From Selaginella moellendorffii (lineage: Eukaryota; Plantae; Lycopodiophyta): a stretch of 64,000 bases of DNA. Made by a program: the position numbers and the translations under genes. The notes below the pieces were generated by a model. That model had not been told where the DNA came from, did no database searches, and was given only the letters and a program-made list of their open reading frames with translations. Shown piece by piece: positions 1 to 64,000 of the stretch (its first letter is position 1; each line of letters begins with the position of its first letter). Location: positions 965,643-1,029,642 of the forward strand of contig NW_003314286.1 in assembly GCF_000143415.4 (NCBI RefSeq), read 5' to 3'.

Positions 1-264
1 CCAACCCCACAAAGAAAATGACAGTTGACCACAAAGGACATGTCTGTATTTGTCACCAGCTGGCAACAAACATACATGTATCACCAACAAAGAACATGTG
101 GCCTTCAATGTCTGTAGCTGGCAACAAACGTGCACGCCATCGTTTTGGTAGCCATCTGGATCATTTATAGAGGAAGTCAGTATTTGCTTACTTCCCTCCC
201 TGTGTGTGCAAATTTCTGTGTGCAGAAGTGTGTGAAGGAAGAATAGATCCTAGTGTAACGTGAT

Positions 265-2480: not shown

Positions 2481-2581
2481 TCCCGTTTGCTATTATTCCA
2501 AGTGGTGGAACTTTGAAATTGCTAAATGGGAGAGTTTCCCCCTCAAGGAGCTTGTAGAACGATCTCTCTGCAATTAAGGGT
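2481..2581 (+). pseudogene. Fragment of the actinoporin gene
   Basis: Diverged copy of about 713-833 (shared tggtggaactttgaa...aaatgggagagtttccccctcaaggagcttgt...ctgcaattaagggt) with small deletions. Confidence 0.85.
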
Positions 2582-14167: not shown

Positions 14168-14256
14168 ACCTGCGGAAGAACCCTAACCCTGGAATATACC
14201 CCAGATGCTTGATACCCTTTATCTTCGATCAAAAAGATTATAATTTTTATTTAGGT

Positions 14257-42227: not shown

Positions 42228-43784
42228 GCTTGTGTGTGTGTGTGTGTATGTGTGTTTAAAGATTGATATTAAATGAATTTCTTCAGTTCTTTTTTATTTT
42301 TATTTCTTTTCTTTTCTTTTTATGTGTATGATTTTTTATTATTATATAATGGTATCAAAAGGAAACCAAAAATAAAAAACTTAAAATTATTAGAAGAAAC
42401 TTACATATAAGATTGTGAACTAAAAAAGCTTCAAACCTGATTCATTAAATAAAAACTACTGTAATATATTAGTAATTACTTAAAAATAAGGAGAATAACA
42501 AATAAAATACTCAAAACTAAAAGCTTAATAATTGAATAAAAAGGAGTTTGGAAGGATGGAAAATAGCTAGGGTTCTTTGGTGGATGGATTAGACTCTAGA
42601 GGAATATCAAGAGTAGGCAATAGTGGATCTATAGGTGGTATTAATTGTTCTTAATCCCTTTGGATGAATAATTTCAACCATTACACATACACAATTTCTG
42701 TAGGATTGGCCTATGCTAAATCTTGTAAAATTACTATCTAATTTGCTACAACACCTAATATAGTCCCTTCTTGAGTAAGGAGCCCCTTAGACAAACCATA
42801 TGTCATAAGATTGGGAAAAGAAACTAACTTCAAATCATCTATTTGGTACTTTGTATGTGAATGATGATAAGAGTTGTAATGTTATTATTGTCCCACTTAT
42901 ATGTAGCCTAAGTGTTCAATAAACTCCACTTAGATAAGTGGAAGAATGTTTGTCAGATACTAATCTTAGGACTTAACATCAACAACTTGTGTTGTAAATG
43001 TAAATTCAACTCCATGAGTAATATTGGATTATGACCATATAGGAATTTATATGGTGAAGCACCAACATAATTTTATACATCTATGATATATACACATTAA
43101 AGAGATGATAAATAACCATCTTAATTTGAAATGCTAAAAGTTTATATACTTCATGATCATCTCTTTAAAAGCCCAGTTGAACCATTCCACTAAACCATCT
43201 ATTTATAGAAGATAAACATTTGTGAAAGTGTGGTATATCTTTAGTCGAGACATTAAAATGTGAAATGCCTCAGCCATAAATACAAGACTATTATTTGAGA
43301 AAATCTATTTTAAATAAAAATACTAGAACACCACTTGATTGAGAAGGAAGTATAAAACAATAATTGCAAATGCTACAAAGAGCATTGACTTTCACTCAGC
43401 AAGTTAAGTAGTCATAAACAATAATGACATAATTATTGTTAATAGATGATTATGGAAAAAGCACCATCAAATTAAATGCCACAAACTTAAATAAATAGGA
43501 AATTACAACTGACTCCACTTGTCCTTTTGCAACACGAGAGGGAGTATTATGAGCTTGGCACTAAAAGCAACTATGCATATATTAGATAACATCATCTCTA
43601 GCTAATAGAAAGAGTTATACAACTTCTCAATCACACAATAATATCCCATATGCTTGTCTAAAATAAAAGAATCTTGGTAGGCATGGAAAAAGAATGGAAT
43701 AAAGATTATAAGCACCACCAATTATAAATAATCATCAAGATCTATCCCCACAAAATAAAGAAAGTCATCTTTAAAATGATATTG

Positions 43785-46700
43785 ACATATGGAGTGTTAG
43801 ACCAAGTGCAAAGGCCAAGTGGTATAGAGGCCATTCATGGGGCTAACATATCTTTAAATCGGAAATAAAATTTATAAAGGTTGTGAGTGAAATTTTTCTA
43901 AGTGGTCAAAGGAATGAAAAATAAATCACTTACAAATTAGTATCAAAGCTATTCCTTAGTTTAACTCTTATTGATCATTATTACTATCACTATTTGACAT
44001 TGATATATAATGGTCCCAAGAGTGGGGTGATACTCAAGGAGTTGCATGTCAGGAGGGCATGGCTCTCCACTTTAATTCACACATGAACTTATATGCAATG
44101 TGGTGGATAGAAAGGGGCCATTAAGGGAATTACTTTAGGACCTTGGGAACAATAAAAAAATTTACTCAAAAAGTTGAGGATACAATTTATATAAGTATTT
44201 AACTTAGCAAACTAGTTAATATGGTTGTGGTAAATAACTATAGTTTAGATCATGGAAAGGATCTCCAAAATAATAAAGGGGTTGCAAAATTATCCTTATA
44301 TAATTAAGGATGGTCCTTATAAATTTAAAATTATAGTTAATGACTATGAGAGGTAAAATATAGATGAGGATATATATCCTTTGAAATGATAGTTAAGGCT
44401 ATCTTTAATAAAAGCTAAAGGAGTGAGAGGGTATATTCAAAGGATGAGTTGGTGTTCTCATCATATAAAATGATAGTTCTAAGAGGCAAAAGTATTTAAA
44501 TGTGGTGGCACATCAAAAATAGCCATGGGGTTAAGACTTTATAGAATGTTAAATTAATAAAGTCTAAAAAGCTAGATGACTCAGTGAAGTCAAGAAATGG
44601 TCCCAAAAGTTTAGAGGAAACATATTTGGATAAAAATATGTTGTACCTAGTGAATATGAGAATAGTGGGTAACTCATTAATGGTAGAAAGTGCCATATTA
44701 AAGTTGTGGAAAGGTGCTTATAAAAGAAAGCAACTTTGGCAAAGAATTATGTGTAAACACTATGTTGTAGTGCTAATTGATAGTTGGTATAAGAAATAAT
44801 TACTATTGTTTTAGCAAAACTTAGACATAAGTAGGAAGTGTTATGAAGGTAGGCTCATGAGCTAATAGTCTGGAGACACTAAATGTCTCAAAAGATGATG
44901 CTTTGAGGTCAAGGTGGTTGGTTCATGAACCCTAATGAAAATGGAATTCATATATCCTAAGCTAGTAGGCATATGATTCATGTGATTGTACTAAATATTG
45001 ATGGAGGTGTGGAATGAGTTGTAGGACATGATGACTATAAGGCAGCTAAATAAAGGTTTAGAATAATTAGAGTTAACTTCTTGTGACCTCTTGGTAAGAT
45101 AAAAAGGAGGTCAGATACATCCTTTAAGAACCCAATCTCGATAGCTATGGACTTTTAGCTGGAAGGGTTAGTTTGAGCACAACACCAAGTGTGGGGGATG
45201 CCTATAAGGTCATAGTCAACAATTTAAAGGTTTGGTAGATTTAATACTTATTAATAAACATATTAATGTATCAACGTGAGATCACTAGGTGATCCTATGT
45301 CTAAACAAGGATAAGCTAAAGGATAAGTTTCTTAATTCAAAGTGTATACATTAGTATTATGAGTCCAAGAAAATAGTCTTTAAAAAAGGACTTATAGGAG
45401 GGTTGTAAGGTTGGGCTATGAATAGAGCCCATAATAAGAAATATTAAAGAAACTTACTAAAGATGAATACTCTATGAATTTAGTAAACTAGAGCATTTGC
45501 TATGGAATAAAAAAAATACCTCAAGGATGGAAGTAGTGATCCTATGTTACTTGGTACAATAATTAAAGTATAGGAAGATAGAAGTAAAAAACTAATAATT
45601 AAAAATGAGTTTTGGAAATTGCTGGAAGAAATCCAAATGATAAATTAAGTGAGAAATTACTATATAAGGGATAACGATTTGTGGGAAAGGAAATATATTC
45701 TAATGATAAGATTACCAAATGTTTCAATTTAGTAAAGGTGAAAGCTCTAAGAGATAAAGTGGCAATGTAGCCAAATGATCGAGCAAGGATAGCCCCAACA
45801 CAAATTATGGATAAATTGAACTTAATATTTATGATGGTATAAAATAAAAGAGAGGATGATAGTACCCTTAAGTAAAGAATTTTATAAGATGGGGAAGTAA
45901 GGTTTGCATAATTTGTGTAATGCAAAGTGTTGAACACACTTAGAAAATTGACTTGAGATATCAATATTAAAGTTTTAAAGTGTGATGGTTATGTTAGTAG
46001 ATGCCAAGATTACTTTAGAGTGAATAGTAAGATTAAGATAAATAAAGTGTCTCTAATGGGTTTAGCAAGAACTAAATGAACAAAGGGAGAGAACCACCAC
46101 ATATAATCTGATAAAACTCTAAGTTGGAGAGATTATACTCCTTAGAGGATGGGCAAAGCATGGTGAGCCTTTAGTGTTGAGCCATTAATGAATATTGGCT
46201 TGGTGTTAAAGATGAAAATGGTAATCCATGATAAGATTACTTTATAAAATAGTGTCTGAGATGGATTCTGAGCTGGATTTGAGATGGAGTCTGGATGGAA
46301 AACCAAGATCGAGATTGAGTCCAAATCCAAGTTTGAAATCGCATTCGAGTCCGAGACTGATTCCAAATATTAATATAAGTTATGGGGTGAAAGCCCAAAG
46401 TGATCATCCCTCAGGGGGGGGAGGGGGGGCATGTCCTTACGAAGTTCTAAAAAAGTATAATAGAGGAGAAGGAGTCTAAAGTTAGAGTGAACATAAATGA
46501 ACAAATGGGGTAGTTTAGTGAAGTGCCAACTCTAACTCCTATAAAAGATCAAATAGTCAATGCTCCCAATCTAAGTGTAGGTGGCATGATTTACTTGGTA
46601 TCTAGTGTGGTTTATGAAAACCTTGCTCTATCCACATGGTTAGGGCACCCAAAAGCGAAAGGTGGGGGGAGTACCTATGAGGTTTGCATAGGGCCATAGT

Positions 46701-47924
46701 ATTTTGAAATGTCATCCCAAAGTTTTGGATTGTGGAAAAGAAGAAGAACAATCCTATTGTGTAGTGATTAAAGGTATAATCACGTGGTGAGGAATTTCTA
46801 GAGGTCAATAGAACTTAGTGGCCAGGCCTTTAGGCCCAAACTCTACGGCAGTATTAGCAAGCATTACCATGGATGGAGAGGGACTTGATGGGGACCAAAA
46901 GGGGGATATTGGGGAAGGGTATTCCTTATGTTTTGAGGATTTTATAGATGCTAAGATGTGGTACTAGGGTGATCACTTATAGATGGATGGTTTAGTTTTG
47001 GAGAGATGGGATTGTGGTATGGGTGGTCTTGGACTACCAATGAGACAAAGGTGAATGGACATAGCTTTAGTGTAATAAATTGTATAAACAACTAAAAAGA
47101 ACGACTCAAAAGATAGTGTATAGGGTTCAAATATAGAGGAAAAATGCTTATGAACAATAGTGCACTTTTTTTTCCAATTAGTTAAGAGTATTAGGATACT
47201 TAGGATTAAGTGTCCTTGGGTTTGAATAGTACTAGGTTAGGACTTCCTAAGAAGTCTAAATTCAGGAGTTTACATTTGGTATCAGAAAGGTCTTAAGTTA
47301 ACTCTGTTGGTTGGCTTAAAGGAATTGCACCACATGTTAATTGACATTTGGCAAGTTCAGTTTGCTCTAGCTAGTTTTGACTCAAAGGGTAGGGTGTCAA
47401 GAGAGCGGGGCTCTTGAGAGAGCTATGGCTTTTAACTTCCATTCACAAAGTTGTGAACTTGTAGGGAAAAGTAGTGCATTATAAATAACTAAAGAGAACG
47501 ATTCGAGAGACAGTCCATGGGGTTTAAAATATAAAAGGAAAGGGCTTATAAACAAAAATGCACCCCTTTTTCTAATCAGTTAAGGGTCTTGGGATACATG
47601 AGGTTAAACATCCTTAGGTTTGAATAGTACTGGGTTTTGAGAAGTCTAAATTTAAGAGTTTATAGGTTAATATGTCAGTGGTACCTTTAGGTGTTTGTAA
47701 TAGGTTCTGACATATAGAGTGCTTGGACCAAGTGCAAAAGTTAAGTGGTATAGAGGCCATCTATAGGGCTAGCATATCCCTAAGTTAGGTATAAAATTTA
47801 TGGAGGTTATAAGTGAGACTTCTCTACAGGGCTAGTATATCCCCAAGTTAGGTATAGGATTTATGGAGGTTGTAAGTAAGACTCCTCTAAGTAGTCAAAG
47901 GTGTGTCAAAATAAGTGACTTATA
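43785..47924 (+). mobile_element. Old LARD-like non-autonomous LTR element (truncated 5' LTR, decayed PBS, internal domain, 3' LTR)
   Basis: LTR end ...cacttaca at 43934 followed by tagtatcaaagc (decayed Met PBS); 45130-46245 is homologous to 53590-53660 plus 61129-62260; 46250-47924 is homologous to the LTR at 49360-51055. Confidence 0.7.
47083..47664 (+). mobile_element. TRIM of about 580 bp nested in an LTR: LTRs at about 47083-47274 and 47480-47664
   Basis: Direct repeats of about 190 bp, PBS TGGTATCAGA at 47277, purine tract before the second LTR; the flanks rejoin into the host LTR sequence (compare 63925-63965). Confidence 0.75.
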
Positions 47925-49359
47925 AAAATATTTTCAAATTCATCACAGAGCTTTCAAAACTAATGGCTCAACCTTTTAAGCCTTATAAACTTCATTAAGA
48001 GAAGATAAATTTTGCAACTGCTGATAGCATGGAATCCTTGTTTAGAAAATCAAAAGAAGGTAAATAAACAACTATTGATAGCATGGAATCCTTATCCAAA
48101 AAATCTACAAATGTTGGAATAATAGGCTCCTCATGAACATGAGAACAAAGCAAGAAAGGTATTTAAAGCTTTAAAGCACACATAGCATTATGTCCAACCA
48201 AGTTATTTAACTTAAATAATGAAATAACCACAACATGATAACCTTCTAGTAATGGTATGAAAAATAGTTTTGGGATTATCTTCCTTAGCCATTGACACTT
48301 GCCAATACCCAGAAGCAAGATTTAACTTGGTGAACTAATAAATTCTCTATAGATAATCCAAAAGATTAGTAGTGTGAGGAATAGGGTACACATCCGAAAT
48401 AATCATTTAATTTAACAAATGATAATTAATGTAGAAGGGAATACTCTCATAAAGCTTTGTTACAAGATATGGTTCACACATCTAAAGACTTCGAGACTTT
48501 TAGATAATACTGTTCTCCAATATCTCCTTAATATTTGTGAGTAAAGTCTTGATTATCTTTGGTGACTGATGTTGAATTGGAACTTTGATTGAATGAGCAT
48601 CCCCAGTTGAAATAGAATGATGTGTTGCAATCTTAGTTATAGATGATAGATTGAAGTTAAAGAGATCAACATCAATTGGTCAACTACTACCATTAAAAGG
48701 ATTTGGAGAGGGAGTAAAAGAGCAAAATAAAAACACAATAAGAAGTAATAAGGAGACAAAAGTGATGGAAGTAAAAGTAAAAATGGAGGTACGAAGGGGA
48801 ATAAAAGTAAAAGGAATGGAAGAAATATAAAGAAGTATGAAATAAGGGAGAGAAGCTTCAAAATCACATTTAATATAACTGTGCTATAACAATCCATACC
48901 AAGGACAAGGTCAAAAACTTGACTCAGCACCACCCTCAATAATTGAAGTTCAAACTCGAGATCACTTACACGTATAGCTAGGTTTGCCTCATCCTACACA
49001 TATGCATATGTATGGCTATTGCCATAAAGAATAAAGACTAACTTTGCTGCACAATACAATTGTAAATGGCAATATGTGGCAATAGGTCGAGAAATAAAAG
49101 ATAAAGTCAAGCCTATATCAATTAGCATAGAGAGAATGATAAAAATCCTTTTGTGATTTGTGTTTAAAACTATAGCCTTCACAAATGAGGTGTACAGTAC
49201 TTACGGCTGCTAACTTGTTAGGCATCTCAACTATGGGATCTGGCAAACTTGAACATCACATTCTAAGAGCATTGTGGGCCCTCCTCAAAAGTCCCATGCT
49301 CTCATGTATGAAAACAAGCTTAGAGTAAACACTAAATGAACTAATGCCAAGTGAACCAC

Positions 49360-51055
49360 TGTGAGACACAAAATCCCTAGGCCCCAAAGTGGAGCCGGAA
49401 AGGGTGCCACGTGGTAGTGGCCGAAGCGAAAGCCAAATGAGTGTAACACGTTTGGACTAAAAGCTCTGACTTGGAAGGTCGAGAGCGAGAGTGGAACTCC
49501 CAACAAAGTGCTCAAGGAACGAGCACGAAGGGAGCAATAAGCAAGGCTCCGAAAAGGGACCCAAAAAGGACTAACACATGACACGTGGAAGTGTCCGAGA
49601 TGGAGTCCGAGGCGGACCCGAGTTGGAGTCCGAGATGGACCCGAAGTGGAGTCCGATATGGAGCCCGAGATGGACCTGAAGTGGAGTCCGATATGGAGTC
49701 CAAGATGGAGTCCGAGATGGATCTGAGATGGACCTGAAGTGGAGTCTGAGATGGAGTCTGAGATGGAGTCTGATATGGAGTCCGAGATGGATCCGAGATG
49801 GACCCGAAGTGGAGTCTGAGATGGAGTCTGAGATGGTCCGAGATGGAGTCCGAGATGGACCCGAGATGGAGTCCGAGATGGACCTGAGATGGAGTCCAAG
49901 ATGGACCCGAGATGGAGTCCGAGATGGAGTCCGAGATGGAACCGAGACCGAGACCGAGACCAAGACCGAGACCGAGTCCGAGTCCGAATCTGGGACTGAG
50001 ACCGAGTCCGAGTCCGAATATTAATACAGGCAGTTGGGTGAAAGCCCAAAGCGATCATCCCCCGCGGGGGGGGGGGGGGGGGGGGGGGCCCCCCGGGGGT
50101 TCCCAAAAATTTATAGGGAGAGGGGGGGGGTTGGAACCCCGGGGAGCCCCTTTGGCCAGGAAAGGGTATTTTGGCCCCGGAAGGGCCAACCTAAAGGGGG
50201 GGGGGGGGCCGACCCCGGGGGAGCCCCAAAATAAGGGGGACCCGGCCCCCCCAGGGGGGGACCTTGGGGAAAGGTTCAAAAACCGGGCCTTTTTCCCCCG
50301 GGGAAACAACTGGGCGAAGCCCCCCGGCCAAGGGGGGGGGGGCCCCCCCTCTTGGGAACCCGGGGGGGGTTAAGGGGACCCCCCTCTTAGCCCCGGGGTA
50401 GGGCCCCCCAGGGGGGGAGGGGGGGGGAGAACCCAGGGGGGTCCCGGAAAGGCCCCGGGTTCCCAAATGTTGTCCCCAAAGGCCCAGACTGTGGAAAGGA
50501 AGAGGAGCAGTCCTCTGGGGTAGTGACCAAGGACACAGTCGTAGGTTGAGGAAGTCCCAGAGGACCATGGGACTTAGTGGTCGGGCCTGTGAGCCTTGAT
50601 CCAATGGCAGTGTCGACAGACATGGCCATGGGTAGAAAGGGATTTAGTGGGGACTGACAGAGGGATATTGAGGAAGGCTATTCCCCTTGTCGGTGGGCAT
50701 CCTAAGGATGCTAAGGAGTGAATCTGAGATGACGACTCACGGATGGTTTGCCTAGTCTTGGAGAGCCAAGACGAGGATGCATATGGTATTGGACTACCAA
50801 TGTGGCAAAGGTGATTGGGCATGGCCTTAGCATGACAAGTTGCCATGTCGGTGGTACCTTTGAGTGTCGGTCATGGGATCGAACACGTGAAGCACTTGGA
50901 CCAAGTGCAAATGTTGAGTGGTATGGATGCCATTCTCGGGGCTAGCAAGCCCCAAGTCCTGAATTGGACTTATGGAGGTTGTGAATGAGACTCCTCCAAG
51001 TGGTTGGAGGTGTGGTTAAGTGACTAAAGTAGAATGGAAAATTTAATCGCTTACA
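49360..51055 (+). mobile_element. Solo LTR (1696 bp) with 5-bp TSD ACCAC
   Basis: TGTGAGAC...CTTACA flanked by accac at 49355-49359 and 51056-51060; homologous to the LTR starting at 62312. Confidence 0.9.
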
Positions 51056-51916
51056 ACCACTTGATGGTACTCCCAAAAGAAGGATGGAGGGGTCACTATC
51101 TTATTTGTGCAAAGACCCTTCACTATTTGTATGATTCTTTATTTCCTAGAAGAATCTTTGTGTCAAAACCTTCCACTATAACAGCACCAATACAACATTG
51201 TTGATGCCAAGGCCTTCATCCAGAAAATGAAGGATGTCAATCTAGAAAATATTGACAATACCGATATATGTGGCCAACCTCATCACATGCCTAGTAGTAG
51301 ACATCTCGGCCACGACCACGTCCTTATCCTTGTACTTTAATACGAGCAGCAGTAACATCAACCTCTATCAAAACAGGACCATCTTTTATAAGAAGTAGAG
51401 TTGAATGGTATGTAGCGAGAAGTGGAAGAGGTGATATCTCATAACATTATGCCAACTGAAAAATATTGTCATAGTTAGAGCAAGTGCATGCACAAATCCC
51501 ATAAGATCTTGATGAAGTGTTAGTTACAACATTCCCAACCTGATCAACTCCAATATATTTAACTCCAAACAAAACAAGATGCTCTTGAAGTAAATGCCAA
51601 ATTTCATCATTGACTTTGACAAAGACAATGCAATTGTTGAAAGGCATCATCACAATTGTTAGCATGTTCAAATGTGCATTTGAAAATGTTTGGGTGTCAT
51701 TTGACAAGTGGATGCACTGAAATTATTATACCATTGTAATGCCGTTCTTTAGAGACATATAGAAACTTATACAAATGCTAAGCATCTCAAGAATGATAGG
51801 TGGCAATCACCATAAAGTGATTAAACCAATGGTACACATCATCACTAAAATTCCCATATAAGAATTCTGACGAGACGTGAGTATTGGTAATAAGAGCAAG
51901 AGGAGTTGTACCATAT

Positions 51917-53128
51917 TGTAAACTCTTGAATTTGGACTTCTTGGGAAGTCATTTAGCTTAGTACTATTCAAACCCAAAGACACTTAACCCCAAATATCTC
52001 AAGACCTTTAACCAATTGAAAAAGGGGGTGCACTCTTATTTATGGGCCCTTTCCCTCTATATTTGAACCTTTATAGATTGTCTCTCGAGTTGTTCCCTTT
52101 GGTTGTTTACAATCCATCATGCTTCTTTGCAAGTTCATGCCCTCATAAACAGAAGCTAAGAGCTGTAGCTCTCCCAAGAGCCCCGTTCTCTTGACACCTT
52201 ACCCCTCAGGTCGAGCCCAGCCGGAGCAAATTGGACCAGCCAAATGTCAATCAATATGTGATGTGATTCCCCTAGCCAACCAACAAAATTGGATTTGAGA
52301 CCTCTCCGATACTAAACTATAAGTCACAAATTTTTCCTTTCCAATTTGCCAACTTACCTTGTTTATCCGACTAACACTACCTTGGACTTAATTAAGTTCC
52401 CTTGCCAAGGTTTCTGCCTATTGTACTAGCTCTTACTTAGTCCTACTTGGTTTTAGTTACTCACTGCACAAGTAATGGAGTGTTAGCCATCCATCTATGG
52501 ATTCCTAAATCTCTCCCAATCCCCCTCCCCGGGTTAGACTGGACTTAAGGTTTAGTTACACTCCCCGCAGGTATAAGTAGCCAAGCACACAAAGCCTTCA
52601 GGTTCTTAACATCCCTTGGTACACCAAGACTTGACCATGAGCCTTTAAATCCCAAGCCTTGGGTGCAACACTTACTTTCGAACGCTAGGGGGAAACACTG
52701 TGGCTTAATGGCCTGGTATAGGTACCCCTACTCGTCCACTTCCATCCCAAAGGGAAGGCCCAAACCCCTAAGAAAGGCAAGGACTAATGAGCCACAAGAT
52801 ACTCAAGTGGGGCACCACTTCATAGAAGCTAGGAGCATCGTAGTCGGTTGCCTTTTCAAGAGTGGGAGCTACTCTTGAGCACTTCCTTGGGTGGCCCCTC
52901 TGGCACCACCCGAGTCCATGCTCACTCCCACCCAAGGCCCCTGGACCCAAGTCTCAACCTCAAGTCAGTTTGGAAGCACTATTGAAGAGTTCTTTCAATA
53001 TTGGTTCCTAGACCTCACTATCCCTATTATACTTTTTGAACCTTCTGCACTCTTATTCATGAGCTCTTTCCTTCTATATTTGAACTCTTATGGATCGTCT
53101 TTTGAGTCGTTCCTTTTGGTTACTTACA
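51917..53128 (-). mobile_element. Chimeric TRIM whose 5' LTR is part TRIM, part chromovirus LTR
   Basis: Minus strand: TRIM LTR start (53128 to about 53046), then chromovirus LTR 3' portion (about 53045-52318), PBS-like tagtatcggag, TRIM internal region, full TRIM LTR (about 52111-51917); flanks catat/tatat. Confidence 0.75.
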
Positions 53129-53744
53129 TATATGCCATAAATGTTGCCATCAACTGAATTGTATAACATTGAATAATTACATCAACTGCTACTCTAGAGT
53201 TAAAGAAGGAGGATATTGTTGCTTTGCCATGAAAATGAATGAACAGAAAAAAAAAAAAACAAAGTAAAAGAGAAGAAATTGAGAAAAACTATCAGGAAAG
53301 TGAGATCTAAATGATGCAAATGCTAAATCAAAAGCCTAATCCAAGCACTTCTTGGATTTGGGTTCGAGTCCCAAATCACTAGGGCGTGGTGATGGTTTGG
53401 AATATGAGGACACTCATATTTCGGTGGTCATGGACTCTTAGTGAGGAGACTAGTTTGGGCACACCGCCAAGCGAGGGATGCCTCCGAGTCGTGATGCACG
53501 GTTAGATTGCTTAAAGTGAAAGTTCAGCATATCTAACTTGAACCCTTTGGTGCAAAGAGCACCAAGGACGTGGTGAATGAGATGTGGACACCCAATCTCA
53601 GTTGCTATGGATCCGGTTTTAGGCTTGGGCGCACTGCCAGGTGTGGGGGATGCCCCCGGGTGTAAGGAACCAACTCGCCGAGGTGTCGTAGGCTAAAGGA
53701 ACCCCAAAAGCATGACCAAAATGACAAAGAGTTCATCAGATGGG

Positions 53745-53990
53745 ACGAAGTCGAAGATCGAGTCCAAGACCGACTCTAGGACTGAGTTCGAGATAGAGTC
53801 CGGAATCGAGTCCGAGACCGACTCGGGGACCGAGTTCGAAACGGAGTCCGAGATCCGAAATCGGGTCCCAGACCGAGTCCGAGGTCGAGTCCGAGGTCGG
53901 GTCCGAGATCGAGTCCGAGATCGAGTCCGAGACCGAATCCGAAGTTGGATCTGAAATCGGGTCCGAGATCGAGCCAGAGACTAAGTCCAA
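53745..53990. repeat. Degenerate CCGAGN/TCGAGN hexamer arrays inside LTRs (also 49590-50017, 60045-60330 and 62545-63160)
   Basis: Tandem ccgaga/ccgagt units and gagatggagtcc-type units; source of the low-complexity ORFs. Confidence 0.9.
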
Positions 53991-54845
53991 ATACTAATAC
54001 GGGTCAAGGGGTGAAAGCCCAAAGCGTGCGTCTCCCGGGGGGGGGGGGGGGCTGCAGGGGGTTCCAAAAGTATAGTAGGGATAGTGAGGTCCAGGAACCA
54101 GTCTTGAAGGAACTCTTCAGTGGTGCTTCCAAACTGACTTAAGGTTGAGACTGGGGCCGAGGGGCCTTGGGTGGGAGTGAGCATGGGCTTGAGTGGTGCC
54201 GGAGGGGCCACCCAGGGAAGTGCTCAAGAGCAGCTCCCACTCCCGAAAGGGAAACTGACTGCGGTGCTTCTGGCTCATGTGGAGTGGTGCCCCACTTGAG
54301 TACCTTGTGGCTCATTGGTCCTCGCCCTCCCTAGGGGCTTGGGCCTTCCCTTCGGGATGGAAGTGGGGGGGTAGAGGTACCCATACCGGGCCGTTAGGCC
54401 ACGGTGTTTCACCCCGATGTCCCGAAGCAAGTGCTGCACCCAAGACTTGGGATTTAGAGGGTCCCATGATCAAGTCTTGTGGTACCAAGGGGTGTTAGGA
54501 ATCTGGAGGCTTGGTGTGCTTGGCTGCTTGTGCCTGCGGGGAGTGTAGCCGAACCTTAAGTCCAGTCTAACCTGGGGAGGGGGATTGGGAGAGATTTGGG
54601 AATCCGTAGATGGATGGCTAACACTCCGTTGCTCGTGTAGTGAGTAGCTGAAACCAAGTAGGACGAAGTAGGAGCTGGTACCATAGGCGGGAACCTTGGC
54701 GAGGGAATTTAGCACAAGCCAAGGCAGAGTTGGTCGGATAGACGAGGTAAGCTGGCAAATTGGAAAGGAAAAATTTGTGGCTTACAATTTGGTATCGGAG
54801 CCTCTTCCTCAGTTCTAGCGAAGGATAGAGGCAGATTGCTGGGAG

Positions 54846-57800
54846 ATGGCAAGGGCAGTATGTAAGCGAACTCAAGCAGAGACGGAACCTCCTCCAGAGC
54901 TGGAGCCTCCGGTCGAACAGGAGGCTATGGATGAGGAATCCTTGCATGAGGAAGACTCTAGTGAGACAATTGGACGTTCTAGAAGGACAATTGGCATAGA
55001 CCAATGCCCTGCTAGAGACTCTCGTACGCAAGCTAAAGTGTGATGAGAAGCGGAAGAAAAAGCGAAAGACTGCGGATGCTGGCAGCGCAGAAGGTGCGGA
55101 CCCTTCGGCAGGGACTGAGGCAAAACCAGACAAGGTTGAACAGACCGAAGTGGAATCAGTCCCTCAGGCAATTCCCAAGTACAAACCAAAGCCCCCACCG
55201 GTCTTTAAGGGAGTGAATGACTATAAGGTGGTGGAGGATTGGTTTTACGATATGGAGGACTACTTCCGAGCGTTGCGATTACCGAGCTCGGAGAAGGTCT
55301 CATGTGCAAAACCATACTTGGCAGATAATGCCAAGTCTTGGTGGAGAACAACAGAGGCCAACGAAGGACCAGTGGCCACTTGGGAAATGATGAAGGCGAG
55401 GATCCGCGCAACTTACGTTCCTCCGAATGCTACTCTGCATCTAAGGGATGAGCTAAGTAGGCTGAAGCAGACCGGAACCATTCAAGAGTATGTGAATGGG
55501 TTTATGGCAAAGAAGATACTTGTCACAGACATGGGGGATATGGATGCGTTCCATGCCTTCATATCAGGTTTGCAAACCTGGGCTTGCGGTGAAGTGATGC
55601 GGTGCAACCCGACTAACTACAAGGAAGCGTTGGATGCGGCCATCAAGGTGCATTTCAACGATAACCTGTGAAAAGGGAACACGATGGGGTCGAGATCCAT
55701 GTTAAGCAAAGGGGCCAAACCAAGGGGAACTTTTAGCAGAGGGAAATTCAAGAAGAGTTTCTCTAAGAATGAGTCCTCGGGGTTCCGGAAAGGCAAATCC
55801 GGTGGCCAACGAGCGAGTACGTGGGGGAGTCAAGCGAAAAAAGACAAACCCACGGATAAGAAGGTCAAGTCGTATAGCAGCGTGGGAAACAACGTATGCT
55901 ACAACTGCGGTGAAGCGGGACACTTCTCAAGGGAATGTCCCTACCCGAAGAAGGCTAGAGCCAATATGGCCATCAAGTCGGGTGAAGTCCAAACTGAGGT
56001 ATGTGATCCAGTCCCTAACTCAAAGTTACTCATTACACGAGCAACTTTGGTAGAGAGTCGTTTGCGACATCTACTAGCCCTCCGAGGGAAGCTCGGAGGT
56101 AGCTTTGTTAAGATCCTTATTGACACGGGTGCTTCGGATAATTTTGTGGCTGCAGACATAGTCCGGCAAGCCGGACTAACGGTGCAGCGGCTAGGTGAAC
56201 CAAGGACTATAGAGTTTGTTCAAGGTAGCCAAAGCACCGATGAGGTACTTCGACAAGCGAGAGTCGAAGTAGGGACATGGAAAGTGGACATGGATTTCAC
56301 CGTGTTGGACATGGCGGGATTTGACGTGATCTTCGGAATGGACTGGTTCAATCGGTTTGTGGTAGCCTTGCATGGACAAGGTAGGAACTTTGTGGTACTG
56401 GCGAATGCCCAAGGAAGAAGATCTAGGGTGGAGGCCCAAGATCTAAGGGTAGGGCAAAGCCAGGCCAAAGATTCCTGCTTAAACCTGGTGTCCACGAGAG
56501 GACAACTCACTAAAGGAACTAAGGTAGCCTTTTTGTGCTTACTCTTGGTGAAGAGTGACAAAAAGACAGGAACGGAAGAAGTACCTTTAGTGATCCAGCG
56601 GGTGTTGGACCAATTCTAGGATACCATGCCGGAGGAGCTACCGGTGGGGCTGCCCCCATCACGACCAATAGAACACAAGATTGAGCTGGTCGAGGGTGCT
56701 GAGGCGGTGGTTCGTCCCCCTTATCGTTTGAACGAAAAAGAACTCGAGGAGCTCAAGTGCCAACTAGAGGAGTTGGTGGACAAAGGGTATGTTAGGTTGA
56801 GCAAGTCGCCATATGGGGCGCCAGTGTTATTTGTGAAAAAGAAAGATGGATCTATGCGCATGTGCATAGACTACCGGTTGCTCAACAAGTATACAAAGAA
56901 GAACAAGTACCTTTTGCCAAGGATTGAGGACCTGTTCGATAGGTTGGGAAAGGCAAAATACTTCTCAAGGATTGACCTAAGGTCAGGATACTACCAGATC
57001 AGGGTATCTGAGGAAGATGTCGAGAAGACAACCTGTCGAACGAGGTATGGTAGCTTTGAGTTTCTGGTGATGCCCTTCGGGATATGTAATACGCCGGCAA
57101 CGTTTTCGGCGCTAATGAACCACATCTTTGTACCCTATCTGGATCACTTCATGGTCGTCTATATCGACGACATCCTGATCTATAGCGAGACGCTAGAGGA
57201 GCATGCCGAACACTTGGCGAAGGTGTTTGAGAAACTAAGGGAACACAAACTGTATGCTAAAGAGAGCAAATGTGACTTTGCTCAATAAGAGGTAAAGTTT
57301 CTGGGGCATGTGGTGGGCCAGAACGGGCTCAAGGTGGACCCGGAGAAGGTCCAAGCGATCTAGGAATGGGAGCGACCATCGAATGTACACGAGTTGAGGG
57401 CATTCCTGGGGCTATGCAACTACTATCGAAAGTTTATCAGATACTATTCGAGAGTAGCCCTGCCCTTAACGGACCAAACAGGAAAAGGGAAGATGGTGTG
57501 GACAGCGGAATGCGAGGCGGCATTCGTCCACCTCAAAGGGAAGTTGAGGAAGGCTCCCGTATTGGCATTACCAGACTTTGGTAAGGACTTTGAGGTAGAA
57601 ACGGATGCTTCGGACTTTGCGTTGGGCGCAGTTTTGAAGCAAGACAACCATCCGGTAGCGTTCTTCTCGAAGAAGTTGGACAAGGATCAACGGAAGTGGC
57701 CTGCCCACGAGAAGGAATTGTTTGCGGTGGTCAAGGCGCTCAAGAAATGGCGACACTACCTTGGGAGACACTTCAAGGTTTACACGGACAATGTGGCAAC

Positions 57801-59620
57801 GAAACACTTCTTGTCACAGCCCGACCTGAGAGGGAAACAAGGTCGGTGGGCCAATGCCTTGGCCGAGTTTGATTGCGAGATTCTGTACAAGCCTGGGAAG
57901 AGCAACATCGTGGCGGATGCGCTAAGTCGAAAAGCGAGCTTGAGGTTGGCAATATCCAGCGCAACAGCAACCTTCTGGGACGATGTGCGGACAGCATATG
58001 AGAACGATGGTCTAGCACAAGAAGTGTTGCTGAGGAATCTAGAGGCGCGGGAAGCTCACCAAAGAGGTGAGCTGCCAACGGAAGAGAAAACGGGCTATGC
58101 GGAACGCAACGGACTCATCTATTACAAGCAAACGAGGGTGTATGTTCCAGAAGGGGAACTAAGGAAGGTGGCCTTAGAAGAGTGTCATGACGGACCTCTT
58201 GCGGGACACGGCGGAGTGCCCAAGACGATGGGCTTACTCAAGAGGAAGTACCATTGGCCAGATATGGCTAAGGAAGTCCAAGACTATGTAAAGACATGTC
58301 CAACATGTCAGTAGGTAAAAGCCGTGACTAAGGCTAGTGGGGGCTTGTTGCAAAGCATCCCAATTCCAGATCGTCCGTGGAAATGTCTTACGATGGACTT
58401 CATCACGGGACTCCCCCCAAGCGAGGGGTTTGATGCGATATTCGTGGTGGTGGACTGATTTTCGAAAATGGCACATTTCATACCCACCACAACGGAGGTG
58501 GATGCGGAAGGTGTGGCGAAGCTATTCTTCGAACAAGTGGTTCGAGTGCGGGGAAGACCGGATCGAGATAAGATCTTCACCAGTAGGTTCTGGAGGACTC
58601 TCCTGGAACAATATCGCACCAAGTTGAAATTCAGCACAGCCTATCACCCACAGACAGGTATGGGGTATTAAGTCAAGTTGTTGGCACTAACACTTCTTGA
58701 CAGATGGACAAACGGAAAGGGTGAATAGGCAGCTGGAGGATTATTTGCGATGCTATGTCTCGAAAGACCAGACCGATTGGGTAAGTCATTTGGGACTTGC
58801 GGAAATGTGTTATAACAACTCACCACATTCGAGTATCGGGGTGAGTCCATGGGAAGTCATCAATGGGCGAGCTATTGAAGGTCCTGTGGAACTCGGCGTG
58901 GCCGAGTATCATGGAGAGTTGCCCGCAATGGAGGCATTCACGGCGGAAAGACTCAGCATTTGGAATTTAGTGAGGGATTCCTTGGAACGGGCTCAACAAA
59001 GGCAAACTAAATACGCGAACCAGAAGTGTCGGGATGTAAAGTTCCAAGCTGGGGAGAAGGTGTGGCTGAACACCAAGAACCTCAGACTACCAAGTGGGAT
59101 CAGCCGAAAGTTGACCCAAAGGTAAAGATGCATGTATTTCTGTAAATGAATTGATCTTGAGTTCCTTAAGCAGGTTCGCGGGGCTTTACAAGATTGAGGC
59201 ACGAATCGGTAAAGTGGCTTACTGACTCCGACTTCCTCGAGAGATGGGGAAGATGCACCCAGTGTTCCACGTGAACTTACTCAAGCCGTACTTTGAGGAT
59301 CCGCTTTGCAAGGACCAAGTGAGACCTTTACCTGAGGTTATCCAAGGGGAAGAGGAATACGAAGTCGAGGCCATCCTCAATGCGCGCAAGAGCAAGTGAC
59401 AAGGACACGAGGTGAGAGAGTTCCATGTGAAGTGGAAAGGATTTCCACATTGCGAAGCAACATGGGAACCGGAGGAGAACCTAGCGAACGCGTGAGATCT
59501 AGTGGAGGAATTTCTGTAAGGCAGAACTCTATGTACTTATGCAAAATTCAATTAAAAATATCAATTTGCAAAGTTGAGCAAGTGGCACATGTTGGGACCC
59601 GAAGGCGCGCCGAAGGTAAG
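54846..59620 (+). pseudogene. gag-pol of the chromovirus (Gag, zinc knuckle, PR, RT, RNase H, IN, chromodomain) with nonsense codons and 2-3 introns
   Basis: CYNCGEAGHFSREC, LIDTGAS, YIDDIL, TDASDFALGAVL, HDGPLAGHGG...CPTCQ, HPQT|DGQTERVN, YEVEAIL...VKWKGF...TWEPEENL. Confidence 0.93.
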
Positions 59621-59957
59621 CTAATTAGCATGGGTTAGCTATGTCGACCAGGCGTAGGGCACTACGCCCGACTCCCCGCGGGGATGTCGAATCCGTAGAC
59701 GTATTCTACGGAGGTTGGGTTCGAGTCCCAACCCCCTAGTAAAGCAAGGCTGGGTTCAAGTCCCGACCCCATACTAGGGCGTGGTGAGGTGAGGGGTATA
59801 GGGACACCTATATCCCGTTGTCATGGGCTCTTGGCCGGGGAGGCTAACTTAGGCACACTGCTAAGTGGGGGGATGCCCCCGGAGACATGGTCAACAAGTC
59901 ATAGGATAAAACGAGACGTTCGATGTGGGCATCGAACTTCTTCTATGGGTGGTGGAG
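59590..59957 (+). ncRNA. Putative structured cis-acting RNA in the chromovirus 3' UTR
   Basis: More than 10 consecutive hairpins; a multi-way junction module recurs at 53355-53499, at 53578-53660 plus 61129-61140, and decayed at about 45130-45220, with compensatory stem changes. Confidence 0.6.
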
Positions 59958-62900
59958 TTGTAAAGAACCAACTCGCTGAGGTGTCGTAAGCTAAAGGAAC
60001 CCCAAAAGCATGACCAAAATGACAAAGAGTTCATCGGATGGGACGAAGTCGAAGATCGAGTCCAAGACCAACTCTAGGACCGAGTTCGAGATAGAGTCTG
60101 GAATCGAGTCCGAGACCGACTCGGGGACCGAGTTCGAGTCCGAGTTCGAGACCGAGTTTGAGACGGAGTCCGAGATCCGAAATCAGGTCCGAGACCGAGA
60201 CCGAGTCCGAGGTCGAGTCTGAGGTCGGGTCCGAGATCGGGTCCGAGATCGAGTCCGAGATCGAGTCCAAGACCGAATCCGAAGTCGGATCCGAAATCGG
60301 GTCCGAGATCGAGCCAGAGACTAAGTCCAAATACTAATACGGGTCAAGGGGTGAAAGCCCAAAGCGTGCATCTCCCAGGGGGGGGGGGCTGCAGGGGGTT
60401 CCAAAAGTATAGTAGGGATAGTGAGGTCCAGGAACCAGTCTTGAAGGAACTCTCCAGTGGTGCTTCCAAACTGACTTAAGGTTGAGACTGGGGCCGAGGG
60501 GCCTTGGGTGGGAGTGAGCATGGGCTTGAGTGGTGCCGGAGGGGCTACCCAGGGAAGTGCTCAAGAGCAGCTCCCACTCCCGAAAGGGAAATCGACTGCG
60601 GTGCTCCCGGCTCATGTGGAGTGGTGCCCCACTTGAGTACCTTGTGGCTCATTGGTCCTCGCCCTCCCTAGGGGCTTGGGCCTTCCCTTCAGGATGGACG
60701 TGGGGGGGTAGAGGTACCCATACCGGGCCGTTAGGCCACGGTGTTTCGCCCCGATGTCCCGAAGCAAGTGCTGCACCCAAGACTTGGGATTTAGAGAGTC
60801 CCATGATCAAGTCTTGTGGTACCAAGGGGTGTTAGGAATCTGGAGGCTTGGTGTGCTTGGCTGCTTGTGCCTGCGGGGAGTGTAGCCGAACCTTAAGTCC
60901 AGTCTAACCCGGGGAGGGGGATTGGGAGAGATTTGGGAATCCGTAGATGGATGGCTAACACTCCGTTGCTCGTGTAGTGAGTAGCTGAAACCAAGTAGGA
61001 CGAAGTAGGAGCTGGTACCATAAGCGGGAACCTTGGCGAGGGAACTTAGCACAAGCCAAGGCAGAGTTTGTCGAATAGACGAGTTAAGCTGGCAAATTGG
61101 AAAGGAAAAATTTGTGGCTTACACCGGGGTCATAGTCAACAATTTAAAAGGGTCTGGAAGACCTAGTTCCTATTGGTAGACCTGTTAAGGGGTCAAGATG
61201 AGATCACCAAGTGATCTTGTGGCTAAACAAAGACAAGGTCTTTGTTTGGGTTAAGGAATATAATTCCTAGTTCAAAGTGTTGATTTGAACTATTGATAAT
61301 GGTGTGGCTTGGTCGAGGTGACCAAGTGGGAAGGACACTTAAAGGAAAATTAGTTGTGCCAGTACGATGGTATAGTAAGTCCAAGAAAATAATCTCGGGG
61401 AGAGACCCATGGGAGGGTCGCAAAGTTGGGCCATGGATGAAGCCCGTAGTAGAAATTGCTAAAGAGACCTACTAGGGGTGAGCACCCGCTGGACTTAGCA
61501 AAGTAAAGCCTTTGCCATGGAACCAAAAGGATACCTCGAGAATGGAGGTAGTGATCCTATGTTGCTCACTGCAACAATCAATGGATAAAAGCAAAAGACT
61601 AGTGGCCAAATGTGTGCCATGGAGTTCATTGAAAGGAATCCAAATGGCAAAGTTAGGCATGGAATACTAATGTGTTGGATGCTAACGGATTGTGAGAAAG
61701 GAAGTGTGCTTCCAAGGATGGATTCCCAAATGCTTCAAGTTGGCAAAGGTGAAAGCTCCACGGGAGGGAGCGGCGAAGTAGCCAAAAGATAGGGCCTTGG
61801 ATAACTCTAGCACAGCTTATGATGGCTAGAACTTGGTGCCAAAAGTGGCATAAAATAGAAAGGAGGACAATGGCACCCTCAAGTGAGGAGCTTCCTAGGA
61901 TGGGAAGTGAAGTTGCACAATATGTGCAGTGAAAGGTGTCAAAGACACCAAAGAAATTAACTTTAAGAAGTCAAAATTAAAAATTCCAAGGTGAATTGGT
62001 TATGTCAATAGAAGTTGGGACTACTCGAGAATGTGTAGTGGGGTTGAGCTAGAGAATGGGTCTCTAATAGGTTTAGCGAGAGCAAACCCAATAAAAGAGA
62101 GAGAACCACCTGAGGTGGTCAAATGAGTCTTTATGTTGGAGACACTATGCTCCTTAGAGGTTGAACAAGGCATGGCAAGCCTTCAGTGTCAAACCATTGA
62201 CAAATATTGGCTAAGTGTCAAGGATGGTGAATGTAATACATGCTAGTGTTACTTTATAAAACGATTTATCATTCGATGAGGACATTGAACTTCGTCTATG
62301 GGTGGTGGAGTTGTGAGACACAAAATCCCTAGGCCCCAAAATGGAGCCGAAAGGGTGCCACGTGGTAGTGGCCGAAGCAAAAGCCAAACGAGCGTAACAC
62401 GTTTGGACTAAAAGGCTCTGACTTGAAAGGTCGAGAGCGGGAGTGGAACTCTCAACGGAGTGCTCAAGGAACGAGCATGAAGCGAGCAATAAGCGAGGCT
62501 CCAAAAAGGGACCCAAAAGGACCAACACATCACACGTGGAAGTGTCCGAGATGGAGTCCGAGATGGACCTGAGTTGGAGTCCGAGATGGAGTCCGAGGTG
62601 GACCCGAGATGAAGTCCGAGGTGGACTCGAGATGGAGTCCGAGATGGACCCGAGTTGGAGTCCGAGGTGGAGTCTGAGATGGACCAAGATGGAGTCTGAG
62701 AAGGACCCAAGATGGAGTCTAAGATGGAGTCCGAGATGGAGTCCAAGATGGAGTCCAAGATGGAGTCCGAGATGGAGTCTGAGATGGACCCGAGATGGAG
62801 TCCGAGATGGACTGAGATGGAGTCTGAGATGGACCCGAGATGGAGTCCGAGATGGACTCGAGATGGAGTCCAAGATGGAGTATTACAAGAACTTTAAAGA

Positions 62901-64000
62901 GTATATCGAGACGGAGTCCAAGATGGACCCGAGATGGAATCCGAGATGGAGTCCGAGGTCAAGACCGAGACTGGGACCGAGACCGAGACCAAGACCGAGA
63001 CCGAGACCGGGACCGAGACTGAGACCGGGACCGGAACCGAGACCGGGACCGAGACTAAGACTGGGACCGGAACCAAGACCGAGGCCGGGACCGAGACTGA
63101 GTCCAAGTTTGAGTCCGAGTCCAAGTCTGAGTCTGAGTCCGAGTCTGAGTTTGAGTCTGAGAGGGTGAAAGCCTAAAGCATTCGTCTCCTAGACCCTGGG
63201 GGGTTTGGTGAGCTCCAAAAGTATAGTAACAGGGAGGACTGCAGTGGAGCCAGTTTGGCTAGGAAAGGCCAGTTTGGCCCAGGAAGGCCAGACCTAGTGT
63301 TGGGTGATGAATTGACCACTAGGAAGTCCAAGACTAGAGTGAATACAGACCGATAAGTGGGATAGCTTGAAGAAGTGTTCAAGAGCCAGCTCTAGTTCCC
63401 CCAGGAGATCGACTGGCCGATGCTCCTAGTCCAAGTGTGGGTGGCACTACCTACTTGGATACTTGGTGTGGCTCAACGGAACCTCGCTCTAAGCTCATGG
63501 CTAGAGCACCTAAAGGCAGAAGGTGGGGAGAGTACCCACGGGGCTCACGTAGGGCCACGGTGTTCCGAAATGTTGTCCCGAAGTTCCAAATGGGGGAAAG
63601 GTGGAGGAGCAATCCTCTAGTGTAGTGACTACGGATATGGTCACATGGTGAGGAAGTCCCAGAGGACCATGGGACTTAGTAGCCGAGCCTATGGGCCTTG
63701 ATCTAGTGGTAGTGTTGGTGAACATGGCCATGGACGGAAGAGGGACTTGGCAAGAACTGAGAAAGGGATGTTGGGGAAGGCTATTCCCATGTCTGTGGGC
63801 ATCTTAAGGATGTTAAGGAGTGGATCTAGGATGACCACTTGTGGACGGATGACCCAGTCTTGGAGAGACGAGATTGTGATACAAGTGGTATTGGACCACT
63901 AGTGCAATAAAGGTGAATGGGTATGGCCTTAGTGTAATGGGCCGATATGTCAGCGGTACCTTTGGGTGTCGGTCTTGGGACTGGACACGTGGAGCACTTG

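Follow-up and report, generated by a model that had tools for sequence, protein, structure and literature searches.

A Selaginella chromovirus with spliced introns in its integrase and a likely leader intron across its PBS

Organization of the locus

The window analysed here, a stretch of 64,000 nucleotides from Selaginella moellendorffii, contains a Ty3/gypsy chromovirus inserted into a copy of a second, non-coding family, with CCGGG flanking both of its ends and an uninterrupted older copy of the insertion junction at ~45180-45240 (Table 1). The 5-bp TSD formed by CCGGG is intact (53656-53660 and 61124-61128), and the element has the TG..CA LTRs, PBS and PPT of Ty3/gypsy chromoviruses, together with Pfam matches to gag, zf-CCHC, protease, RT, RNase H, integrase, SH3 and chromo. 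These matches confirm the order gag-PR-RT-RH-IN with a C-terminal chromodomain (PF00385, E 1.5e-10), the SH3 match (PF24626, E 1.3e-4) lying below its curated cut-off. The two LTRs align with 1091 matches and 32 mismatches (K2P 0.029) and carry G runs of 15 and 11, and the PBS, going by the plant PBS motif, is one that we take to be of the tRNA-Met type, on which the SM1-Galahad paper agrees. No tRNA gene was found in the window. The integrase exon at 58704-59121 aligns to Ty3 Gag-Pol 1269-1388 (PDB 7q5b), and the D-x35-E spacing was read from the window sequence. Judged by its reading frames, the copy in the window is dead: its gag exon has a stop and, near 54966, a frame-shifting deletion, and the exon that runs from 56156 to 58657 has several stops and, near 58560, a deletion of 15 nt. 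A putative further intron donor at 59516 was rejected, nearly all DNA contig depth having another letter there. The RING protein neighbouring the element clusters at 90% with XP_002963699.2; on the sequence evidence, the genus of the host is certain and its species follows from this single gene.

Table 1. Features of the chromovirus and of the second family in the window
Feature	Coordinates	Strand	Remarks
Second family, whole solo LTR, 1696 bp	49360..51055		TSD ACCAC
Second family, two tandem hairpin-array units, left of the insertion	53340..53660	+	Similarity to the 3' array
Ty3/gypsy chromovirus, SM1-Galahad-type, 7463 bp, dead copy	53661..61123	+	TG..CA ends, TSD, Pfam domains
5' LTR, 1126 bp	53661..54786	+	12-mer array, poly-G run
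Likely leader intron L, 66 nt	54747..54812	+	GTAAGC..CTCAG, across LTR end and entire PBS; loose end, one study
PBS, presumably tRNA-Met type	54790..54802	+	Inside likely intron L
Gag exon	54846..55998	+	Capsid, zinc knuckle
Intron A, 157 nt	55999..56155	+	GT..AG, coding if retained; joint in X15, X17
Exon with rest of protease, RT, RNase H, integrase zinc finger and first two catalytic aspartates	56156..58657	+	
Intron B, 46 nt	58658..58703	+	GTATGG..CTAAC..CAG; joint in X15, X16, X18
Integrase exon with catalytic glutamate	58704..59121	+	Glutamate codon 58715-58717
Intron C, 52 nt	59122..59173	+	GTAAAG..CAG, 33% GC; joint in X15, X16, X18
Last coding exon, Tf2-like SH3 and chromodomain	59174..59520	+	PF24626, PF00385
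3' hairpin array	59590..59957	+	Two hairpins with T-loop-like 7-nt loops (59720, 59755), GACA-loop hairpin (59803), pre-PPT hairpin
Polypurine tract	59945..59957	+	Directly before 3' LTR
3' LTR, 1165 bp	59959..61123	+	
Second family, non-coding internal part	61129..62311	+	Ends in shared pre-PPT hairpin and PPT (62272-62311)
Second family, LTR	62312..64000	+	Cut by window end

Relationship to SM1-Galahad

On published features, and not on identity to a consensus sequence, the element matches SM1-Galahad, which is described from the same host as a chromovirus of ~7.5 kb with LTRs of 1076/1146 bp, an 11-25-nt poly-G, a 13-bp Met PBS and a 3885-bp ORF without the chromodomain, followed by two short ORFs, the last of which carries the chromodomain (Novikov et al. 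2012, PMC3350952). The 7463-bp length and the 1126/1165-bp LTRs of the window element agree with this account, and the two exons downstream of intron B, with the chromodomain in the last, reproduce its ORF layout. The distance from the ATG to the stop inside intron B comes to 3885 bp once 47 and 15 nt are added, these being sequence that the window copy lacks against the RNA contigs, and from this agreement in length it follows that intron B is present in the SM1-Galahad DNA consensus. The published account takes the split as extra ORFs, the available text having 0 occurrences of 'intron' or 'splic', and the introns, Gag-only isoform and 3' array reported here are absent from its description of SM1-Galahad (PMC3350952).

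The domain order is that of SM2-Galahad and other Galadriel-type chromoviruses. A 1578-aa protein (P0124), one residue off the published length of SM2-Galahad, aligns across the entire polyprotein at 42-50% but, unlike the window element, is encoded by a single ORF that is unbroken across the B and C sites; among the sequences compared, the introns are therefore particular to the SM1 lineage. The best named relatives are tomato and pepper elements at 48% (no tree), no protein near-identical to the middle integrase exon was present among the best 150 representatives (maximum 50%), and no long Gag relative was found at E<=1e-25.

Splicing of the chromovirus

Evidence for splicing comes from contigs of four of six presumed-RNA runs (X15, X16, X17 and X18; X19 and X20 were left out), the RNA status of X15-X18 being a guess made without a silent-stretch control, and these contigs derive from other copies, mostly 90-99% alike to the window copy. 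For the DNA run X1 (61,317 contigs), the 15 joints with the best support, out of 97 in a tally that leaves some joints uncounted, include none of introns A, B and C, and the sole listed indel falls inside intron B. Three 2026 RNA runs contained 12, 1 and 0 element reads per 9.2 million records each and no joint at a 3-read threshold, and with no host-gene control they are uninformative on splicing.

Introns B and C, both GT..AG and both frame-shifting, interrupt the integrase and are spliced, and the DNA copies retain them. The B joint was found in three of the four presumed-RNA runs (two of three studies) and the C joint likewise in three of four, with a short side of 24 letters in X18, and both joints occur together on one 2500-nt X15 contig and one 1083-nt X16 contig; an X17 contig, possibly DNA, is unbroken through intron B. 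Intron B sits four codons upstream of the integrase catalytic glutamate, in a region where the HPQTDGQTE-type motif is unbroken in 93 of 120 homologous polyproteins, and tblastn alignments of relatives switch between frames 1, 2 and 3 at B and C. Retention of B leads to a stop at 58669 and retention of C to one at 59123, and by conceptual translation the intron-retaining form would stop before the catalytic glutamate. The preliminary description of this DNA had proposed a splicing-gated chromovirus, and the joints in presumed-RNA contigs, the contiguity of relatives at both sites and the truncation of the integrase in the retained form all uphold that proposal. It had recognized two introns, beyond which A is now shown and a leader intron, L, is likely.

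Splicing of intron L likely excises the LTR end and the entire PBS, the evidence being a loose end rather than a listed joint and coming from two of the four runs, both of one study. Contigs of X15 and X16 depart from the window at 54811 into letters mapping to 54716-54744, a match of 25 specified letters with no mismatch (0 expected by chance) that is followed by AG/GTAAGC. The donor GT of L is also present in an 85%-identical antisense LTR piece near 52355 and absent from the 3' LTR of the window copy, and the loose end may also reflect a transcribed copy with a genomic deletion. Folding of the leader is no better than that of shuffles (z -1.1). Among the X15-X18 contigs, none joins L to A, B or C, and none retains A where B and C have been removed.

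Intron A is spliced in some contigs, which removes the protease active site (DTG at 56122-56130), and its joint was found in two of the four presumed-RNA runs, with a short side of 28 letters in X17. Intron A folds above shuffles (z -3.7) with its donor predicted to be paired, a lead only. A reading in which B and C alone are genuine introns, tolerated by the family, and in which L and A are products of cryptic splicing in RNA from decayed copies and play no part in the life cycle, is quite unlikely. Such a reading accords with L coming from one study, with the near silence of the family in the three 2026 RNA runs and with A being ordinary coding sequence through which relatives align in frame, but A recurs at identical bases in two studies, no X15 or X16 contig covers it, and its removal brings a stop at 56159-56161, one codon past the joint, with a product of Gag only, the same outcome as that of splicing in EVD and BARE1. 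It also gives no reason why B and C persist.

Separate RNA pools could also arise at the RNA ends, with spliced RNAs stopping before the array and PPT, or with genomic RNA from another start site bypassing splicing. The early polyadenylation of EVD and the two start sites of BARE are precedents, and the spliced X15 and X16 contigs do end at 59502 and 59512, upstream of the array, with ATTAAA at 59551 in an AT-rich stretch. However, both stops come from one study and contigs are uninformative on RNA ends, X17 and X18 have contigs over 59411-59669 and 59583-59739, and an X15 contig continues 765 nt past the intron A acceptor and so has no EVD-like stop there, which leaves this reading improbable.

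The 3' hairpin array and the non-coding family

The 3' RNA had been described as structured, and indeed none of 100 shuffles folds as well as the array at 59590-59957 (z -4.76), but other 150-nt windows are equally structured (56050, z -5.9; 56350, z -4.9). The introns had also been placed directly upstream of the array; the two integrase introns do lie upstream, but distances of 417 and 887 nt separate their ends from it, and the SH3/chromodomain exon intervenes.

Outside the insertion, the non-coding family carries the same module. Its units at 53340-53660 are 73.7% identical to the chromovirus array over 133 nt and 86% over 36 nt (fold z -4.82), and the pre-PPT hairpin and PPT are common to both elements (59919-59961 versus 62272-62314, 90.7% over 43 nt), as had been stated for the non-coding relative. 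With the insertion discounted, its stretch from array to PPT block measures 1143 nt. None of 299 retrotransposon proteins matches 53050-53660 or 61129-62311 at E<=1, the longest stop-free frame in the latter is 105 codons, and the internal region is thus without gag or pol, as in a LARD. This internal part is 69% identical to an older copy at 45354-46249. PPT and 3' LTR of the interrupted copy are present, its 5' LTR and PBS were not found within the window, and an older copy of the family has 2.3 kb of internal sequence together with an LTR end and PBS-like site at 43938. The LTR of the second family, previously called different, is diverged but not unrelated, sharing a 67-nt block of 80.6% identity with the chromovirus LTR, and both LTRs carry the same kind of 12-mer array. 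Hijacking of the module is indistinguishable from common descent because the two LTRs are homologous. The introns, array and shared PPT block of the preliminary description stand, whereas its placement of the introns and its relation between the LTRs do not; the second element is, in addition, the older target of the insertion.

In both families the GACA hairpin keeps all 10 of its pairs, with 3 double changes, and the T-loop hairpin keeps 7 and 8 of 8 pairs in the two families with 2 double changes; this covariation is modest, at P 0.06-0.12 per hairpin for the two best and nothing for the other two comparisons. Changes from G-C to A-T in hairpins can arise by deamination. No viral contig held a relative, and metagenome contigs gave 11 distant loci, of which 10 had ~70% GC and no polyprotein and one (L005) is a 1071-nt chromovirus piece with one frame across the C site; the T-loop motif is in none of the 11. 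Brome mosaic virus box B resembles a tRNA T-loop. The two 7-nt loops of the array recall this T-loop likeness, with no sequence or Rfam match, and the function of the array is predicted. Structured cis elements for export or template recruitment are described for IAP (RTE), musD (MTE), CTE/RRE and box B (PMC12786077; PMC5869524).

By analogy with these, the array may be a CTE/RTE-like element for nuclear exit or packaging of intron-retaining RNA that would thereby preserve the introns, a reading that is compatible with our preferred one but unlikely. The strong folding in both families, the kept pairs and double changes, the retention and duplication of the array in a non-coding relative, and the precedents of IAP and musD in LTR elements and of the CaMV leader in plants (PMC12786077) speak for it. 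Set against these are the weak covariation and the equally structured windows elsewhere, the lack of any Rfam family at gathering score or, over the array, at E<=5, the position of the array behind all introns with no array-intron pairing above shuffles (25-36 of 40 shuffles as good), and its presence in the second family without any pol sequence; moreover, according to the review that gives these precedents, NXF1 is unused by plants and export of plant LTR RNA is unstudied (PMC12786077). The most likely role of the array, a predicted one, is to act in cis in packaging or in the choice of template, and the two families would share it by descent.

Comparison with known systems

Retrotransposition is classically proved by the loss of introns, and according to published accounts plant LTR elements generally lack them, with Ogre and EVD-type cases as exceptions. 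Foamy viruses have their splice donor upstream of the PBS, so that their spliced RNAs are without it. They make large splices from one major donor, whereas the window element has several host-style introns of 46-157 nt. As in the window element, foamy virus enzymes come from spliced RNA, that of pol (PMC7828637).

In EVD, other Arabidopsis Ty1/copia elements and barley BARE1, an intron at the gag/protease border is reported to yield a frameshift, a near stop and a Gag-only mRNA (PMC5580714; PMC3735527), and splicing of intron A at the same border has these consequences. BARE is further described as having separate RNA pools for translation and replication (PMC3735527). EVD and BARE1 are, however, copia elements with one optional intron and none required for integrase, whereas the window element is gypsy; the EVD intron removes the entire protease and intron A only its first part; and, in these accounts, what keeps spliced RNA out is the start site in BARE and early termination in EVD, and not the removal of the PBS. 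Among plant Ty3/gypsy elements, Ogre and CRR have spliced transcripts, and Ogre has to be spliced for RT-RH-INT to be translated (cited in PMC6317226, PMC3735527), but its intron lies between two ORFs, whereas the window element has two inside integrase domains and one likely across the PBS. Similarly, Penelope-like elements still have their introns once they have transposed, among them one in the 5' UTR that straddles the repeat boundary, but they are not LTR elements and have no tRNA priming, and the significance of retention is called unknown in that account (PMC8557442). In searches of the open-access literature, we found no account of introns in SM1-Galahad or of a PBS-removing intron in an LTR retrotransposon.

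Proposed mechanism and implications

We consider it probable that splicing, which acts on three internal introns of the family RNA and likely on a fourth that contains the PBS, sorts this RNA into template and messenger pools. Unspliced RNA would keep the PBS and be the sole reverse-transcription template, with its integrase truncated before the catalytic glutamate; RNA that has lost L, B and C but still contains A would encode full Gag-Pol, including integrase and chromodomain, and be unprimable; and RNA spliced at A too would give Gag alone, setting a Gag excess. As L is the first intron transcribed, RNA entering splicing would lose the PBS and leave no intron-less daughters, and the likely unprimable state of spliced mRNA would explain why the introns persist. 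RNA that kept L yet was spliced at B or C would yield intron-less daughters. The likely leader intron that removes the PBS is a simpler gate than an export element, and one that the preliminary description had overlooked.

The proteins would act in trans and could favour non-coding relatives with cis signals alone. More tentatively, and with somewhat less than even confidence, a PBS placed in its own intron may have the spliceosome mark each mRNA as uncopyable, which would let ordinary spliceosomal introns enter and stay in the integrase, let copia-style Gag splicing be re-invented, and let the element become an obligate trans helper for non-coding relatives with the same T-loop hairpin as a signal for packaging.

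A high-copy family with integrase introns must exclude spliced RNA from replication, and a PBS-spanning intron is a simple way of doing so that bears on how a single transcript is apportioned to translation and to packaging. Elements listed as 'broken' or multi-ORF in repeat libraries may be intact, spliced genes.

Identity and State of the Chromovirus

The two LTRs of the Ty3/gypsy chromovirus, 1126 and 1165 bp long, align with 1091 matches and 32 mismatches (K2P 0.029), and the 5-bp duplication CCGGG lies on either side of the element. In a profile search, its Pfam domains follow the order gag, zinc knuckle, protease, RT, and RNase H, succeeded by an integrase zinc finger and core, a Tf2-like SH3, and a chromodomain. 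This copy is dead, because its reading frames are interrupted by stops and two stretches present in transcript contigs, one of 47 nt near 54966 and another of 15 nt near 58560, are missing from it. The element is assigned to SM1-Galahad by its features. A RING protein encoded nearby falls into one cluster with a protein of Selaginella moellendorffii. The published account of SM1-Galahad describes an element of ~7.5 kb in hundreds of copies, with LTRs of >1 kb containing poly-G runs, a 13-bp Met primer-binding site (PBS), and a 3885-bp ORF without a chromodomain followed by two short ORFs, the last encoding the chromodomain (Novikov et al., 2012; PMC3350952). Counted from the ATG at 54846, the stop inside intron B is reached after 3885 bp once the two stretches that this copy lacks (47 + 15 nt) are added. 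Introns and splicing are mentioned nowhere in that paper (PMC3350952). The family is already known; the literature searched yielded neither a description of its splicing nor any LTR retrotransposon whose integrase is interrupted by introns or whose PBS is spanned by one. A 2025 review names Ogre and EVD as departures from the rule that LTR elements of plants lack introns (PMC12786077).

Features of the window
Feature	Position (strand)	Length	Remarks
Chromovirus	53661-61123		LTR ends, duplication, Pfam domains
Intron L (likely)	54747-54812	66 nt	Pyrimidine-rich CAG end; loose end, X15 + X16 (one study)
Intron A	55999-56155	157 nt	Joint in X15 and X17 (28-letter side)
Intron B	58658-58703	46 nt	GT..AG; GC 0.41 (exons 0.50); joint in contigs
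Intron C	59122-59173	52 nt	GT..AG; GC 0.33 (exons 0.50); joint in contigs
3′ hairpin array	59590-59957		z -4.76
Second-family array, two units	53340-53660		z -4.82; 73.7% over 133 nt with the 3′ array
Second-family solo LTR	49360-51055 (+)	1696 bp	TSD ACCAC; middle (about 50070-50470) rich in G/C homopolymers, looks like poor sequence
Older second-family copy	43800-47080 (+)		CpG strongly depleted (o/e 0.08)
TRIM-like small family	47085-47662 (+); 51915-52330 (-)		LTRs ~190-200 bp; Met-type PBS
Antisense SM1-Galahad LTR piece	52320-53049		85% identical; joined to minus-strand TRIM-like copy
Decayed RT fragment and weak integrase-like matches, other elements	48245-48670 (-) and 43025-43600		RT E 3e-13; integrase-like best E 0.003
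Actinoporin-like gene	259-927 (+)		Single exon; PF06369, E 8.9e-44
Partial duplicate of actinoporin-like gene end	near 2490-2580		Short piece
MADS-box gene	about 4700-6590 (-)		Many short introns; presumably MIKC*-like, by eye
SYF1-type splicing factor gene	11197-14182 (-)		Two consecutive frames (intron or frameshift); PF23231 and others
Degenerate repeat	16617-17084; 20389-20718	about 115-123 nt	Two clusters

Splice Joints and Introns in DNA Copies

Splice joints were sought in contigs of four runs from three studies (X15 and X16, of one study, X17, and X18), which are classed as RNA by an automatic guess only and derive from other copies of the family. Joints of introns B and C are present in X15, X16, and X18 (for intron C with a side of 24 letters in X18), and the two occur together on single contigs in X15 and in X16; one X17 contig is continuous through intron B. 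Reads numbered 12, 1, and 0 in three raw RNA runs from 2026 and carry no weight on splicing. Homologous polyproteins used as tblastn queries (P0124, P0002, and others) align in three frames that break at introns B and C, and the motif around intron B is in one piece in 93 of 120 homologues. Intron B sits four codons ahead of the catalytic glutamate of the integrase D-x35-E motif, and the alignment of the exon with this glutamate to Ty3 Gag-Pol begins at residue 1269. Retention of either intron shifts the frame and brings a stop, so that a complete integrase cannot be made from RNA that keeps the introns.

Splicing of intron A takes out the protease DTG at 56122 and leads to a stop one codon past the joint, the same outcome as that reported for the copia elements EVD and BARE1 (PMC5580714, PMC3735527). 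Intron A is itself well structured (55980-56200, +; z -3.7), and its donor is predicted to be paired, a possible control of retention.

The DNA run X1 covers the entire stretch with 61,317 contigs; introns A, B, and C are all absent from the 15 best-supported of at least 97 joints, and the sole indel listed falls inside intron B. The SM1-Galahad-type family evidently transposes with introns in place, because the published consensus ORF ends inside intron B and the TSD of this copy is intact. Penelope-like elements likewise retain introns, for reasons termed unknown in a report on them (PMC8557442).

The Likely Intron L and the Primer-Binding Site

Contigs of X15 and X16 exit the compared stretch at 54811, and their remaining letters map to 54716-54744 in the 5′ LTR with no mismatch at 25 specified places, directly followed by AG|GTAAGC. 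We infer intron L from this loose end in one study instead of from a listed joint, because the compared stretch started at 54790. This intron would enclose the end of the LTR (54786) together with the PBS (54790-54802). Cryptic splicing, as an explanation of introns L and A, appears unlikely. In the older second-family copy, an acceptor-like pyrimidine-AG stands behind a PBS-like site (43938) with spacing as in the chromovirus, hinting that this copy may share intron L.

The 3′ Hairpin Array and the Second Family

The 3′ array combines a GACA-loop hairpin with two T-loop-like ones, and its folding bears out the structured 3′ module of the preliminary description; all three occurrences of the T-loop motif in the 64-kb window lie within the hairpin arrays. 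The chromovirus was inserted in an older non-coding element, the second family, of which 1143 nt of internal sequence were matched by 0 of 299 retrotransposon proteins. The pre-PPT hairpin and PPT proposed to be common to both agree at 90.7% over 43 nt. The LARD-like element was also said to keep the module despite a different LTR; the module is indeed shared, but the LTR differs only in part, being longer and having a 67-nt block in common at 80.6%. An X17 contig runs across the second-family PPT into its LTR (loose ends). The insertion at 53656-53660 hit a hairpin unit homologous to the chromovirus's own 3′ array. DNA contigs at 59740 carry on into more T-loop-like hairpins with other stems (loose ends), and the number of array units seems to vary among copies.

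Array stems are kept with a few double changes, in a weak test: the two best hairpins reach P 0.06-0.12, and stem covariation gave no signal in the other two comparisons. It had been suggested that the array, like a CTE or RRE, could let intron-retaining RNA be exported; export of LTR-element RNA is unstudied in plants according to the 2025 review (PMC12786077). Such a role is compatible with sorting by splicing but unlikely, as the array matches no Rfam family, shows no pairing with introns above shuffles, and is no more structured than some other parts of the chromovirus.

Proposed Mechanism

Splicing at introns A, B, and C is seen in contigs, introns are kept in DNA, and the coding outcome of each form follows from the sequence. 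The earlier term "splicing-gated chromovirus" is supported by these joints, and we consider it probable that splicing of introns A, B, and C and of the likely intron L sorts RNA into primable template and mRNA. It is also conceivable, though doubtful, that RNA ends separate the pools, which is compatible with sorting by splicing; in one study, the spliced contigs break off at 59502 and 59512, close to an ATTAAA at 59551. Spliced foamy virus RNAs lose the PBS. Foamy viruses splice pol (PMC7828637). BARE keeps spliced RNA out via the start site (PMC3735527), whereas loss of the PBS is proposed for the chromovirus. Under sorting by splicing, intron L would be removed from any RNA that undergoes splicing, unspliced RNA alone would be a primable template, and splicing of intron A would set the Gag excess. 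The proteins would act in trans, an arrangement that would suit non-coding relatives.
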